A stretch of 61,625 nt of DNA, from the NCBI GenBank assembly GCA_945860125.1, contig CAMAPQ010000003.1, positions 1-61,625 of the forward strand, given 5' to 3'. The position numbers and the translations under genes are program-made. The notes under the pieces are model-generated. The model was not told where the DNA came from. It saw only the letters and a list, made by a program, of their open reading frames with translations, and did not search any database. Positions 41,122 through 55,143 of the stretch are shown in pieces; the stretch's first letter is position 1, and the number at the start of each line of letters is the position of its first letter. The DNA comes from Klebsiella pneumoniae. Lineage in GTDB: Bacteria; Pseudomonadota; Gammaproteobacteria; Pseudomonadales; CAMAPQ01.

Positions 41122-42111
41122 TCAAGACGATAAATCTTTACTAAGGCTAAATAACTCGTTATAACCAATCATCATTTTTTCTTCGGTATACTGTTGCAGT
41201 ATTCTTTCTCGATTATAGGCACCCATATCAGCTCTAAGACTTGGGTTTTCTATGAGCTTTTTAAGATACATGCTCATTGCATCTACATCACCAAAATCAG
41301 TTAGATAACCCCCTTTTCCATGATGAATTAATTCAGGCATAGTTGATTTATTTGAAGTAACAACAGGAAGCCCACAAGCCATTGCCTCAGCCACAACCAA
41401 ACCAAAACCTTCGCGAAAAGTTGGAAATAATAAAATATCGCAATCTTGATACACAAACGGCATATCTTCATGAAGAACTCTACCTAACCAACTAATTTTT
41501 CCCTCTTTTTTATCCCCATGCTTATCAGAACCAATCATTATAATCTGAGTATTTTTCGGTAATTTATCTGATATCATTTCAATCAAATGAAACCCTTTTG
41601 CTTTTTTAAACGCACCAACATAAAGGATTTTAATTTTTTCATCTGCAGGTTTTTTTTCCTTAACAGGTATAAATTTATTATGATCAACTCCATTTTCAAT
41701 CACATGAATATCTTTTTTTATATTCAGTGTGTTTTTTGCAAGATCAGCAATAAAATGGCTTACTCCGGTTAAAATATCAGCATTTTTAACTGCAGAAACT
41801 ATTGCAGGCGCCAAAATATTTTTATAATAAAATTTTTGTGCAACGGATGAAAAATCAATAAACTCCCTGTCAATCCTAAATCCATGAAAGGTCAGTATAT
41901 TGATACTTTTATTTGATAAAATATACGGCCCTAAATCTGGAGAACTATGAATAATACAATTTTCTTTCTTATAAATAGACATTAATTTTGGACAAAGCGC
42001 TGCATAGGGAGAAATTGAAAAAATCTCATAATTTTTAATTTTTTGAGATAATTTCTCATGTAGAACATATGCACCATTTCCATATATTACTGGGCAATAT
42101 ATGCTCATCAT
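41122..42111 (-). CDS. GT4 family glycosyltransferase
   Basis: VIENGVD, EGFGLVVAEAMACGLPVV. Confidence 0.92.
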   Translation of the reverse strand: MMSIYCPVIYGNGAYVLHEKLSQKIKNYEIFSISPYAALCPKLMSIYKKENCIIHSSPDLGPYILSNKSINILTFHGFRIDREFIDFSSVAQKFYYKNILAPAIVSAVKNADILTGVSHFIADLAKNTLNIKKDIHVIENGVDHNKFIPVKEKKPADEKIKILYVGAFKKAKGFHLIEMISDKLPKNTQIIMIGSDKHGDKKEGKISWLGRVLHEDMPFVYQDCDILLFPTFREGFGLVVAEAMACGLPVVTSNKSTMPELIHHGKGGYLTDFGDVDAMSMYLKKLIENPSLRADMGAYNRERILQQYTEEKMMIGYNELFSLSKDLSS

Positions 42112-43193
42112 TTTTTTCTATCTCTTATTAAAAACATGTTAAGTTTATTATAAGCATTCCAAAAAAAAACAATTGATTTAAGTAAAATTCCAGCATAAGA
42201 TTTTTTCAGATGAAAAACTATTAACATAATCATTTTTAAATATTTAATGTTCTTTATTTTTATACCTGCTTCAAAAAAACTTATTTGCTCAGGCGTAGGC
42301 TGACCAAACTCTGAAACAAAACTTAATGCAACATAAACGACTCTATGTGGAAATAAATAATAAATTAATTTAACTCTTAATTTATCGTAAACACTAAGAG
42401 ATATACTTTCTGAAACCTCCAGAAAGTGATCCAATGCTAAAACCCAATCAACCATCTGTAATAGTCTTCGATCTCCATCAGCAGAAAACACACCAGGTTC
42501 TCTTAGACGAAAAAAAGCAGTAATATCTGATGTGCAAGCGCATAAACCATAACGCAAAAGTTCTGCCGTAAGCCACACATCGCTATTTATTTTATAATAT
42601 GAAGCACCCAAGCCACCAGTTTTTAAATAGATACTTTTTTTAATTATCGCGCCTGCCATCCAACCTGATGATGTCGTCCAAGGGACAAATAGTTTAAATG
42701 CCTCAGAGAGACTTAATACGCCATGAAATTTATCAGACCTAGTAAAACATCTTCTGTCGCTTAAACTCTCATCATATTGTAAAGAAGCATACAAATTTCC
42801 AAAAGCAAAAACCACCCTATCATCTTTACGAATTAAACTTATCATTTTTTCAATACAATCTGGCGTGATAAGGTCATCAGACGATAAAAAAGCAATATAC
42901 TCACCTTCAGCATAGGAAGCAGCAAAACCAAAACTTTCATTCATTGATAGAAAAGAATTAGTTTTAATTTTTCTTATTTTTGAATGTATTAATGAAGCGA
43001 GAAACTCATCTGTTCCATTCGTACTATGATTATTAGATACAATTACTTCAATATTAGAATAGGTTTGATTTAAGGCACTTTCGATACAGGCTTTTAGATA
43101 GTCTAAATTCTGATTATAAGTTGGTATAACGATACTAACTAACGGCTCAAAGACCGTGTGATTTAACGGTACATGATCATTACTTTCGTCCAT
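42108..43193 (-). CDS. GT2 family glycosyltransferase
   Basis: PLVSIVIPTYN, SALNQTY, GEYIAFLSSDD. Confidence 0.92.
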   Translation of the reverse strand: MDESNDHVPLNHTVFEPLVSIVIPTYNQNLDYLKACIESALNQTYSNIEVIVSNNHSTNGTDEFLASLIHSKIRKIKTNSFLSMNESFGFAASYAEGEYIAFLSSDDLITPDCIEKMISLIRKDDRVVFAFGNLYASLQYDESLSDRRCFTRSDKFHGVLSLSEAFKLFVPWTTSSGWMAGAIIKKSIYLKTGGLGASYYKINSDVWLTAELLRYGLCACTSDITAFFRLREPGVFSADGDRRLLQMVDWVLALDHFLEVSESISLSVYDKLRVKLIYYLFPHRVVYVALSFVSEFGQPTPEQISFFEAGIKIKNIKYLKMIMLIVFHLKKSYAGILLKSIVFFWNAYNKLNMFLIRDRKK

Positions 43194-43264
43194 ATAAATA
43201 ACTCACATAATATAACTGTTTTTAAATATAGTTTTTTGTGTTTAAAATGCAAACACCTCTTTCA

Positions 43265-44746
43265 TTACCCATTGGACTTCATATATCTATAACCAAACAG
43301 CCAGGAAGCACCTACCACTAAAAAAGAAACTCCCGCTAATGTTAAACCAAGCCCGTATCTTGATGAGGGAAAATAACCCCATTGATAAAACAAAAAAGGA
43401 GGAAAAATGCTAATTAAAATCACGACTAACTCTGGCAGCAGACTGATCGCGTACCAACGTCTTGCAACACCGATTAACACTTTTCGGTGAATAGCAAAAA
43501 CTGAAAAAAGAATATACCCAACATTCACCATTAACCAAGCAAAACCTCCGGCCACCAAACCATAAGATAATACGCTCACAATAGACAAAGGCAGAAGAAT
43601 TAAACAAGCAAGCATATTTTGATATAGCGCAAACTTAGGCCAGCCAGCTGCCAAGGTCAGCGCATAAGGGATGTGCATTAATGCATTACAAGCAGCGCCA
43701 ATGGATAACATTATCAATACATAAGGCAAGGCATGAGGATAATTATGATTACCAATATAAATGAATAAAATATCCGAAGGAAAAAAAACTAACATAGCCG
43801 CAAAAGGCATTACAAGACAAGCAACCAATCTAGAACCAATAAGATAGGTATGCGTGAGTGATACAACATCACCCAACGTAAACTGCTGAATCATTTTGGG
43901 TAGCCATGCATTCATGACTAAACCCGCAGGACGGGTTAAAACACTTACCATTGACCAAGCCAGCATATAAAAACCAAATTCTTCCAAAGGTAAAATACGA
44001 CTTAAAACAATTTTATCTAAGCTTGTCAAAAGTAGCGATACAATCGTAACGCCCAACATATCACACGCATATTTTTTAGTGCGATGAAACACAGCAAAAT
44101 CAAATCTTGTTTTGCCTGAAGGGAAGATACGCCACAAAACACAAGCAATGATTAATAAATGCAGCGCAGTTATAAGGGCGTGCCAACTAAAAAAAACAAG
44201 TATCGTTTGATTTTTATCAATCAAGAAAGGAATAGCACCGATAAACCGTAGAGCACTCATGGAGGTATTAATCACATTCATCAAAGGCTGACGCTGCAAA
44301 CCAATAAACCCACCGGTATAAAAAGAAATAGGCAACTGAAAAAATAATTGCACAGCCATCAGTTGTAATGATTGCTCAACAAGCTTTATAGGCAATTGTT
44401 GTATTTTTAACCAAGAAGTCGCAAGCAGAGGAATACTAAAAAAAGCAGGGATAAAACAAAAAATCGCAAAACCAATATAAATCACTTCCAGCGTTCTAAG
44501 GGTTGTACGTACCTGTTTTTTTCCCTCATCAGTTGCTGTTTGTCCTGCAATCTCTCTTGTTAAAGCCGGCGTTAGCCCCATATCAAAAATTAAAGTAATA
44601 CCTGCTAAAGTTGCAAAAACCCCGATTAGCCCAAAACCATCAGGGCCAAGATAATGTAGATAAACAGGCATAATCACAATCTGTATAATTGCAGTTATGC
44701 TGCTACCTAGAAGGTTACTTAGAAAGTTAGTTTTAAGAGAGGTCAT
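43265..44746 (-). CDS. wzx: Wzx-like oligosaccharide flippase
   Basis: multi-TM, LGPDGFGLIG, DMGL..ALTREIA, DKIVLSRILPLEEFGFY. Confidence 0.85.
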   Translation of the reverse strand: MTSLKTNFLSNLLGSSITAIIQIVIMPVYLHYLGPDGFGLIGVFATLAGITLIFDMGLTPALTREIAGQTATDEGKKQVRTTLRTLEVIYIGFAIFCFIPAFFSIPLLATSWLKIQQLPIKLVEQSLQLMAVQLFFQLPISFYTGGFIGLQRQPLMNVINTSMSALRFIGAIPFLIDKNQTILVFFSWHALITALHLLIIACVLWRIFPSGKTRFDFAVFHRTKKYACDMLGVTIVSLLLTSLDKIVLSRILPLEEFGFYMLAWSMVSVLTRPAGLVMNAWLPKMIQQFTLGDVVSLTHTYLIGSRLVACLVMPFAAMLVFFPSDILFIYIGNHNYPHALPYVLIMLSIGAACNALMHIPYALTLAAGWPKFALYQNMLACLILLPLSIVSVLSYGLVAGGFAWLMVNVGYILFSVFAIHRKVLIGVARRWYAISLLPELVVILISIFPPFLFYQWGYFPSSRYGLGLTLAGVSFLVVGASWLFGYRYMKSNG

Positions 44747-44798
44747 GAAAAAAGCAGCCCATTAATTCTTTGTAGGTAGATTAATTTACCTCTCTTAA

Positions 44799-54555: not shown

Positions 54556-54573
54556 GGCATCCCTTCCAAAATG

Positions 54574-54606
54574 AAAGATCGCTGGCGTTAACCCCAGCGA
54601 TCTTTT
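54574..54606 (-). terminator. hairpin after pilA (terminator or attenuator)
   Basis: AAAGATCGCTGG/CCAGCGATCTTT; short U tract on minus strand. Confidence 0.7.
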
Positions 54607-54636
54607 AAAGCATGAACTTATGAATAAAACAGTATA

Positions 54637-55143
54637 TTAAGCTTTACAGCTGGTTGGCTTATATCTGGTTGGCATGTTACCAGCAAAAGGCACTCCAACA
54701 ACGTTTTGTTGGTTTCGACTCATCGTTAAATCAGGAGTAATTGAAGAGCTCCCGCAAATCCAAATAATTTGATTTGCTCTGTTAACGTAGGGGCTGAATC
54801 CTAAGTTTAAGCCGGCGATTCTCCTGCTAACTTTTGGTTGGTTATAAGTAATCGTAATTGTACCGGAAGTGTTAGTAGCAATTGATGAAACATAGTTACC
54901 TGTAAAACTCGTTGCCGCTGGTAGACCTAAAGAGATAGCGCCAGCTGAATGCCTGCCTTTATTTCCATAAAACTCACTAATACCAACTTTCAGTTCAGAA
55001 GCCATTGTTATGCCTTCCGTCACCTGAGAACGAACAATATAATCCTGATACTGTGGCACTGCAATTGCTGCCAAAATACCGATAATTGCAATAACGATCA
55101 TTAATTCGATTAAGGTAAAACCTTGTTGTACTAACTTATTCAT
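54637..55143 (-). CDS. pilA: type IVa major pilin
   Basis: [31 protein letters not shown]-terminal disulfide loop; divergent from pilBCD. Confidence 0.97.

Follow-up and report, generated by a model that had tools for sequence, protein, structure and literature searches.

The position immediately downstream of pilA, the gene for the major type IV pilin, holds in Pseudomonas (para)aeruginosa group IV strains (Pa5196, PA7) the gene for TfpW, a D-arabinofuranosyltransferase. According to the TfpW preprint (10.1101/2020.04.19.049825), this protein of 646 amino acids (aa) is encoded immediately downstream of pilA and has an N-terminus in the cytoplasm, 11 transmembrane (TM) helices by prediction and a periplasmic C-terminal tetratricopeptide repeat (TPR) domain; glycosylation of the pilin depends on a DDX motif in periplasmic loop 1, and ArnT was the best modelling template. 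The same text describes glycosylation of the pilin from a polyprenyl-phosphate-linked donor, polyprenyl-P-D-arabinofuranose (D-Araf), which is made via DPPR synthase, DprE1 and DprE2, as well as polymerisation of the Araf by TfpW, and it places homologues beside pilA in Azotobacter, Acinetobacter, Teredinibacter, P. indica and Kingella (10.1101/2020.04.19.049825). The present work concerns a comparable locus in a stretch of 61,625 nucleotides (the window; contig CAMAPQ010000003.1 of assembly GCA_945860125.1, contig C3 among the 125 contigs of this 2.58-Mb genome), in which pilA is followed by the genes for a 659-aa GT-C glycosyltransferase with TPRs (P0001) and for a GT2 glycosyltransferase. 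The initial annotation of this DNA had set the 659-aa enzyme apart from what is known in this slot, a view that is unsupported or goes too far, as TfpW has the same architecture and slot; by analogy with that enzyme as described, TfpW is the closest functional relative of the 659-aa protein.

Other pilin-modifying enzymes, including TfpO/PilO, PglL and TfpM, are found in the same slot in some Pseudomonas and Acinetobacter strains and presumably have the same outcome, a glycosylated pilin, but their fold and family are unrelated to those of the present enzyme and they use O-units linked to undecaprenyl diphosphate. TfpO, moreover, acts on a C-terminal Ser, whereas the pilin encoded here ends in Ala. 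The pilin glycosyltransferase Ogt of cyanobacteria is no relative either, being a soluble enzyme of family GT41 and not a GT-C. Three-component systems, such as GtrABC, ArnC/ArnEF/ArnT and the PPPRS-MATE-GT-C system of Citrobacter youngae, combine a polyprenyl-phosphate sugar synthase, a flippase and an extracytoplasmic GT-C enzyme, as the present locus appears to do (PMC11127046; PMC11194591, a commentary which also has the undP-pentose system of C. youngae served by a MOP/MATE flippase). Those systems decorate lipopolysaccharide (LPS) or lipid A and their GT-C enzymes carry no TPR, whereas here extra soluble glycosyltransferases and a sugar pathway are attached. In Haloferax volcanii, AglB is an STT3-type N-oligosaccharyltransferase that is archaeal, uses a dolichol carrier and has the S-layer as its target. 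The locus resembles the Haloferax AglJ-AglB system in that AglJ is the best NCBIfam match of its GT2 (3e-34, below cut-off), in having no phosphoglycosyltransferase and in having soluble glycosyltransferases and a MOP flippase beside the GT-C gene; it differs in that AglB is N-linked in its chemistry, archaeal, dolichol-dependent and directed at an S-layer protein. Both a GT-C/TPR enzyme for pilin (TfpW) and three-component systems as such are already known. Among the papers listed in a literature search, none besides the TfpW preprint covers the GT2-coupled form, its breadth or its TMTC homology, and the one that mentions pilin together with TMTC deals with an unrelated materials topic; the present locus has a branched-sugar pathway in addition.

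Open reading frames (ORFs) were called and scanned against Pfam and NCBIfam, followed by whole-genome family searches for absent functions. On the basis of predicted functions, a structural model and analogy with the described systems, we consider it probable that the island is a three-component lipid-monophosphate-sugar system dedicated to type IV pilin O-glycosylation. This reading builds on what was observed of the gene content, the GT-C fold, the conservation of residues of catalytic type, the relationship by homology to TMTC and the synteny, from which we infer the acceptor, the donor sugar, the assignment of the flippase and any role of the downstream genes. The pilin is the most likely acceptor because the linkage to both pilA and the lipid-sugar GT2 is conserved.

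The GT-C enzyme is encoded at 52576-54555 on the minus strand, directly after pilA, and was identified from its AlphaFold2 model, fold match and motifs. The initial annotation had noted in this position a multi-TM protein with FVFDD, YRP, HP and LSKE motifs and TPRs, all of which were recovered (FVFDD at residues 41-45, YRP at 78-80, HP at 150-151, LSKE at 209-212, and TPR sequence matches at ~573-641), and its expectation of a GT-C fold agrees with the model. The latter, built from 42 homologues (pLDDT 88.5, pTM 0.87), has 11 TM helices and, besides these, three short helices next to the membrane; a helical-repeat (TPR) domain starts at about residue 427. An exhaustive VIA-align structural search matched residues 17-438 to the GT-C enzymes AglB (Z 17.4), ArnT (16.7), Pmt4 (16.4) and Pmt1/2 (16.1), with ALG12, STT3 and PglB ranking below these; since the top scores are tied within about 1 unit, the fold does not single out a subfamily. 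In two alignments of the family, with 42 and 44 sequences, D44, D45, R79, P151 and K211 are invariant, as are R374 and Y376. Conservation of P80 and H150 reaches at least 90% in either alignment, and the same holds for E212 in the smaller of the two, whereas the larger shows no exception to E212. The family is present as a single copy in its own genome, beside the single pilin gene.

Animal TMTC1-4, the protein O-mannosyltransferases of the endoplasmic reticulum (CAZy family GT105), were compared with the enzyme at the profile level. Profile A5, made from the membrane domain of the 659-aa protein (residues 1-440, 44 sequences), matched 37 proteins at E ≤ 0.001 in a search among longer proteins, six of which carry PMT_2 and four of which carry PF08409 (TMTC_DUF1736), namely P0400 (2e-32), P0402 (2e-31), P0405 (3e-21) and P0412 (2e-9). 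P0400 and P0402 are bacterial, more distant relatives, and P0412 is the Limulus "transmembrane and TPR repeat-containing protein CG4050-like", with an own PF08409 score of 1.5e-30. Alignment of A5 with P0412 by hhalign gave a probability of 97.1% (E 7e-11, 347 columns) with FVFDD..I..N, HP, (S/C)KE and the Y-P of the last loop in register, so that the early description of the enzyme as TMTC-like is supported by these alignments at the level of homology. P0001 itself gave no match to PF08409 up to E 10, and for the 42 aligned relatives the listed 25 of 36 families did not include it. As protein O-glycosyltransferases, TMTC enzymes have the catalytic or ligand-binding motifs M1 (DD), M2 (SHKSYRP), M4 (KE[TQ]xxT) and M7 (ERxxY) (PMC7801869). 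P0001 has DD, has YRP without SHKS, and has KESILT at 211-216, which fits M4; the M7 counterpart is D-H-R-N-Y (E-H-R-N-Y in relatives), with the Arg one residue off ERxxY. The enzyme and animal TMTC1-4 thus have homologous membrane domains at profile level and the DD, YRP and KE..T motifs in common, and they are alike in their 11 TM helices, in an N-terminus inside the cell with lumenal or periplasmic TPRs, and in a donor made by a Dpm1-type GT2, as predicted for the present locus. They differ in that P0001 has no PF08409 match, a shifted ERxxY and a shorter TPR array, and in that the acceptors of TMTC1-4 are cadherins whereas the acceptor proposed here is a pilin. No solved TMTC structure was seen among the PDB sequence and structure searches made here.

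The GT-C family comprises 4,899 representatives of 50%-identity clusters at E ≤ 1e-30, and relatives are encoded in at least 589 of 600 genome stretches scanned. Synteny was surveyed in the best 80 of these at least 589 related loci, all from species-representative genomes, whose taxa include Burkholderiales, Nitrosomonadales, Methylococcales, Xanthomonadales-type bacteria and Cellvibrionaceae as well as many metagenome-assembled genomes (MAGs); a pilin was scored when a canonical pilin ORF lay on the same strand within 1.5 kb upstream of the GT-C gene. A pilin gene directly precedes the GT-C gene on the same strand in 67 of the 80 loci, and because of this recurrence the pilA-GT-C arrangement is far beyond chance. 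Seven of the 13 loci without a pilin have no upstream DNA, and in L073 the pilin gene precedes tandem copies of the enzyme gene. An orthologue of the GT2, with 50-63% identity, is found in 62/80 loci and lies directly downstream of the GT-C gene in 56; among the 18 loci that lack it, eight have less than 1.6 kb of downstream DNA or none. The survey of pilA-linked homologues that had been proposed as a check came out in favour of the linkage on both sides of the enzyme gene. Conservation is far higher in the GT2 than in the GT-C enzyme (~30% identity), and the trio of pilA, GT-C and GT2 genes is one of the commonest major-pilin-gene neighbourhoods in environmental beta- and gammaproteobacteria. 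Moreover, homologues of the GT-C enzyme were found in 10 of 30 other families sampled from the same order.

What follows the trio varies. GT4 glycosyltransferases are the commonest second neighbours (29 of the 61 ORFs scanned), and the 53 third-neighbour ORFs include 11 methyltransferases and eight epimerases of the short-chain dehydrogenase/reductase (SDR) type. RfbF, RfbG, an epimerase and a C-methyltransferase follow the trio in the same order as in the window in L031; L007 has RfbF, a C-methyltransferase and an epimerase, L045 a C-methyltransferase, an SDR and an epimerase, and in L064 an MBOAT gene and its partner come directly after pilA-GT-C-GT2 (43% and 34% identity). Two or three tandem GT-C/TPR copies after the pilin gene are present in 15/80 loci (three in L037, L073 and L077; two in L007, L013, L032, L038, L042, L050, L060, L062, L080 and others), several of which were seen to have only one GT2 orthologue. 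Two pilin genes occur in L002, L015, L026, L039 and L062. In L039, a locus of an Arenimonas sp. MAG without the GT2 orthologue, the GT-C pair is followed at 8050-9348 by a fusion of a cytidylyltransferase with a phosphoenolpyruvate (PEP) mutase, which hints at phosphonate decoration instead of a GT2-made sugar donor.

The GT2 of the trio (51515-52375, minus strand) is a protein of 286 aa with two C-terminal TM helices (PF00535, 2e-31). Its sequence matches in the PDB are the dolichol-phosphate mannose synthase DPMS (5mlz, 3e-14), ArnC (9hwj) and GtrB (5ekp), and by this sequence similarity it is predicted to be a polyprenyl-monophosphate sugar synthase of the DPMS/ArnC/GtrB/AglJ type. A protein of GtrA type was not seen at the locus; a MOP flippase is encoded at 43265-44746. 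One 1077-aa protein from an ENA metagenome contig (P0381), considered as a fusion of GT-C/TPR and GT2, was not counted as evidence: only residues 1-202 of the GT2 of the window are covered by its GT2 part (63% identity over 204 residues) and the junction runs through the apparent native GT2 start, so that read-through or a frameshift in one metagenomic contig may explain it.

The pilin gene (54637-55143, minus strand) encodes a major type IVa prepilin of 168 aa (PF00114, 5e-18; N_methyl, 1e-9) with the leader MNKLVQQG|F, and it is the sole PF00114 match in the 2.58-Mb genome. The pilin had been called Ser/Thr-rich and Ala-terminated, with a 35-residue loop; counting bears this out, as the mature PilA of 160 aa has 30 Ser/Thr (18.8%), Cys122 and Cys158 enclose 35 residues, and the C-terminus is KA. 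Between pilA, which ends at 54637, and the start of the GT-C ORF at 54555 lies a hairpin (54574-54605, minus strand) with a stem of 12-13 bp followed by a U-rich stretch, CAUUUUGG, so that the arrangement is that of the TfpW slot. Its RNA fold has an energy of -23.1 kcal/mol (z -3.2), and none of 200 shuffled sequences was as stable. The hairpin looks like a terminator or attenuator by its sequence, and it was not listed by a simple terminator scan; a terminator behind the pilin gene is named as a feature of pilin-accessory cassettes in PMC11841053.

Compared by description, the 659-aa enzyme and TfpW are alike in the slot after pilA and a terminator, in length (659 versus 646 aa), in a cytoplasmic N-terminus, 11 TM helices and a periplasmic TPR domain, and in a DD motif in the first periplasmic loop, here within FVFDD 41-45, the two Asp of which are those found invariant above. 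ArnT is among the best structural matches of both, a polyprenyl-monophosphate-linked donor serves TfpW and is proposed here, and both occur in beta- and gammaproteobacteria; homology of the enzyme to TfpW (AAM52060.1) is likely. The two differ in that the cassette here has a DPMS/ArnC-type GT2 in place of D-Araf genes and in that no tfpX-like gene follows. Moreover, the YX6PFX7P motif is only half present in the loop that joins TM7 to TM8 (Y292-X6-P299): P299 is invariant in both alignments, and Y292 is so among the 42 sequences, with a conservation of at least 90% among the 44, whereas the PF...P half is missing, with N at position 300 and R at 308 (H in most relatives). None of the ORFs scanned in the window encodes DPPR synthase, DprE1 or DprE2; other parts of the genome were not searched for these. 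Neither a protein named TfpW nor a species of the preprint was among the best 120 matches of P0001 or of its Exilibacterium homologue.

The trio belongs to a co-oriented gene run on the minus strand from 55143 down to about 38375, interrupted solely by a plus-strand acetyltransferase gene, which faces a divergent pilB-pilC-pilD-coaE set. The genes pilB, pilC and pilD (55504-59563, plus strand) encode the assembly ATPase (T2SSE, 7e-152), the platform protein (T2SSF, 7e-65) and the prepilin peptidase (Peptidase_A24 and A24_N). The initial annotation had read the genes after the enzyme as a polyprenyl-phosphate GT2 and a co-oriented sugar pathway, flippase and glycosyltransferases, and the Pfam and NCBIfam scans agree. 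Downstream of the GT2, the minus strand carries genes for RfbF, glucose-1-phosphate cytidylyltransferase (50700-51473; TIGR02623, 2e-135, above cut-off), RfbG, the cytidine diphosphate (CDP)-glucose 4,6-dehydratase (49621-50739; TIGR02622, 1e-145, above cut-off), an RmlC-type 3,5-epimerase of nucleoside diphosphate (NDP)-4-keto-6-deoxyhexose (48971-49534; PF00908, 2e-57; TIGR01221, 4e-46) and an NDP-hexose C-methyltransferase (47748-48974; Methyltransf_14, 1e-61; Methyltransf_13, 4e-23), which would yield a branched sugar if its family assignment is right. The interrupting gene (47080-47745, plus strand) encodes a hexapeptide-repeat acetyltransferase, EpsC/CysE-like (PF00132, 5e-7). Back on the minus strand follow an SDR, probably an NDP-sugar 4-ketoreductase (45935-46825; PF01370, 2e-23), and a second methyltransferase with a C-terminal domain of C-methyltransferase type (44799-45893; Methyltransf_23, 2e-17; Methyltransf_14, 1e-10). 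From this enzyme set the predicted nucleotide sugar would be a CDP-6-deoxy-C-methyl-hexose. It is reminiscent of CDP-vinelose.

Further along the minus strand, a MOP-family (Wzx-like) protein with 12 hydrophobic segments (43265-44746; PF01943, 3e-18; MOP flippase model, 8e-10, below cut-off) is a candidate flippase for the lipid-linked sugar, and it is followed by a soluble GT2 with zero TM helices (42108-43193; PF00535, 2e-26), a GT4 glycosyltransferase (41122-42111; PF00534, 7e-32) and a DltB/AlgI-like membrane O-acyltransferase of the MBOAT family (39441-40862; PF03062, 9e-31; DltB model, 2e-49, below cut-off). The last gene of the run (38375-39484) encodes a protein of 369 aa that has a single TM helix at its N-terminus and matched neither Pfam nor NCBIfam, probably the periplasmic partner of the MBOAT protein. 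A divergent gene for a fusion of a GT4 with a methyltransferase (36374-38236, plus strand; PF00534, 1e-24; Methyltransf_11, 4e-15) is likely the edge of the glycan island.

No Wzy_C oligosaccharyltransferase, Wzz or initiating phosphoglycosyltransferase had been recognised at the locus, and the whole-genome family searches concur: Wzy_C (PF04932) was found on contigs C6 and C26 only, Bac_transf on C56 and C26 only, Glycos_transf_4 on C18 and C15 only, and a Wzz-like protein as one weak match on C26, with none of these in the window. A Wzy polymerase is not a protein that a family search can exclude; of the ORFs without Pfam match, two were checked for membrane helices (38375-39484 and 35172-35963), and their products are not polytopic membrane proteins. 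On C26, at ~22.6-31 kb (L084, L086, L106), a phosphoglycosyltransferase (Bac_transf), the weak Wzz-like match and a Wzy_C protein lie within about 8 kb, and by these matches a conventional diphosphate-linked polysaccharide locus seems to be present there.

[quoted passage not shown] Catalysis would proceed via the DD motif of the first periplasmic loop, with K211 and R374 binding phosphate and the TPR domain holding the pilin, and the hairpin after pilA might hold expression of the enzyme genes below that of the pilin gene. Elaboration of the glycan in this organism would probably fall to the CDP-6-deoxy-C-methyl-hexose pathway together with the two soluble glycosyltransferases (GT2 and GT4) and the MBOAT pair; this step is the weakest.

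Several observations weigh against this mechanism or its last step. Ten of the 80 loci have at least 5.8 kb of downstream DNA and no GT2 orthologue; 10 ORFs scanned from six of these ten loci included no UbiA- or DprE-type protein, the ORFs found in such loci being methyltransferases, an LPG_synthase_TM protein, a PEP mutase and others. The sugar genes of the window recur in 1-3 of the 80 loci overall (RfbF and RfbG in two, the epimerase and the C-methyltransferase in three), and as the GT2 is conserved while the downstream genes differ, it probably draws on a common nucleotide sugar for its donor rather than on the CDP-sugar. The periplasm is closed to soluble enzymes such as the second GT2 and the GT4, so that a role for them requires assembly at the lipid stage before flipping, and to our knowledge such assembly on a monophosphate-linked carrier is unproven in bacteria. 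Furthermore, the membrane domain of P0001 matched no Pfam or NCBIfam family and no solved chain by sequence: a search of the PDB with P0001 gave TPR chains only, a search with the membrane-domain profile gave zero matches up to E 10, and Foldseek with the whole model against the PDB gave TPR proteins only.

Haloarchaeal AglJ-initiated N-glycosylation proceeds with an oligosaccharide on a monophosphate-linked carrier. By analogy, a short oligosaccharide might be built on undecaprenyl monophosphate, started by the AglJ-like GT2 and extended by the soluble GT2 and GT4 with the CDP-sugar pathway, flipped by the MOP protein and transferred en bloc to the pilin by the TMTC-like enzyme. Initiation by the AglJ-like GT2 would mean that no phosphoglycosyltransferase is needed. 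We regard this variant as a tentative possibility. The main rival explanation, which we hold to be somewhat less likely again, is that only the GT2 and the GT-C enzyme serve the pilin, with a single common hexose or N-acetylhexosamine, and that the 13-kb downstream cluster makes some other glycan of the cell surface, for instance a capsule, an LPS O-unit or a glycan for proteins in general, and is there only because the pilA flank is a recombination hot spot. The conservation of the GT2 at 50-63% identity over 62 loci, set against sugar genes that recur so rarely, speaks for it, as do the G+C content of 0.31-0.36 at 41-49 kb, compared with ~0.38-0.43 across much of the window and as low as in mobile glycan islands, the fact that Wzx-type flippases usually handle diphosphate-linked units, and the phosphoglycosyltransferases and Wzy_C proteins elsewhere in the genome, which could start and ligate a unit. 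It fits less well with a window in which no initiating transferase, Wzy_C or Wzz was matched, with the co-orientation of the genes, the two larger gaps examined (GT-C/GT2 and RfbG/epimerase) each holding a copy of a mobile-element-like repeat, with the same accessory genes after the trio in L031, L007, L045 and L064, with the prevalence of GT4 as second neighbour, and with the complete-looking conventional locus that C26 already provides.

Two further explanations depart from pilin glycosylation altogether. The GT-C/TPR and GT2 enzymes could target LPS, peptidoglycan-associated glycans or many periplasmic proteins, the linkage to pilA reflecting co-regulation only; GT2-fed GT-C enzymes commonly decorate LPS or teichoic acids (GtrABC, ArnC/ArnT; PMC11194591), TPR domains are generic binding modules, and 10 of the 30 same-order families sampled have homologues as well, which may stand in other contexts. 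This is nevertheless unlikely in view of the 67 of 80 loci, from beta- and gammaproteobacteria, in which a pilin gene of the same orientation lies directly upstream, of TfpW, the one characterised enzyme of the same architecture and slot, which acts on the pilin according to the preprint cited above, and of the function of TMTC as protein O-glycosyltransferases (PMC7801869). That the 659-aa protein is a non-catalytic accessory or assembly factor of the pilin, like TfpY, on a retained GT-C scaffold would accord with TfpX, TfpY and TfpZ, which in the same slot aid assembly without modifying the pilin (PMC11841053), but the invariance of DD and of the phosphate-binding-type K and R in 42-44 homologues and the tight coupling of the enzyme to a lipid-sugar synthase make it highly improbable.

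If pilins are indeed glycosylated by the trio, then in many lineages adhesion, antigenic variation and the interplay of pili with phages would be shaped by it, and the animal TMTC O-mannosyltransferases would have in the enzyme a relative from bacteria that is open to genetics. If the oligosaccharide were indeed transferred en bloc, the enzyme would represent a third class of bacterial protein O-oligosaccharyltransferase; the system would be what the AglJ route is in haloarchaea, transposed to bacteria, and would offer a tractable model of the TMTC family, whose structure is unsolved.

Some other features of the genome and the window were recorded. The 30 nearest genomes returned are all related at order level only and each belongs to a different family, so that the 2.58-Mb genome has no closer relative among those returned; the G+C content of the window is ~38%. 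A palindromic repeat of ~104 bp, resembling a miniature inverted-repeat transposable element (MITE) or a repetitive extragenic palindromic (REP) element, lies at 52412-52515 between the GT-C and GT2 genes (fold -45 kcal/mol, RNA fold z -5.8), and the 200-bp gap between these genes is due to its insertion. A second copy (49556-49659) overlaps the 3' end of rfbG, a further copy is found at 16868-16972, and the repeat has at least 41 matches with 83-100% identity in the 125 contigs of the genome (170 first-look candidates, 40 scored). Two minus-strand genes at 32509-34803 encode first a protein of 543 aa, which has a TM helix in its centre and acidic stretches of low complexity and matched no family, and then a 207-aa TPR protein; the former, considered at 33172-34803 as a second GT-C enzyme, is unrelated to the GT-C enzyme of the trio. 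Finally, four successive ORFs of 167-177 aa at 26218-28651 (plus strand), three of which were scanned and gave no Pfam match, might constitute a paralogous family.

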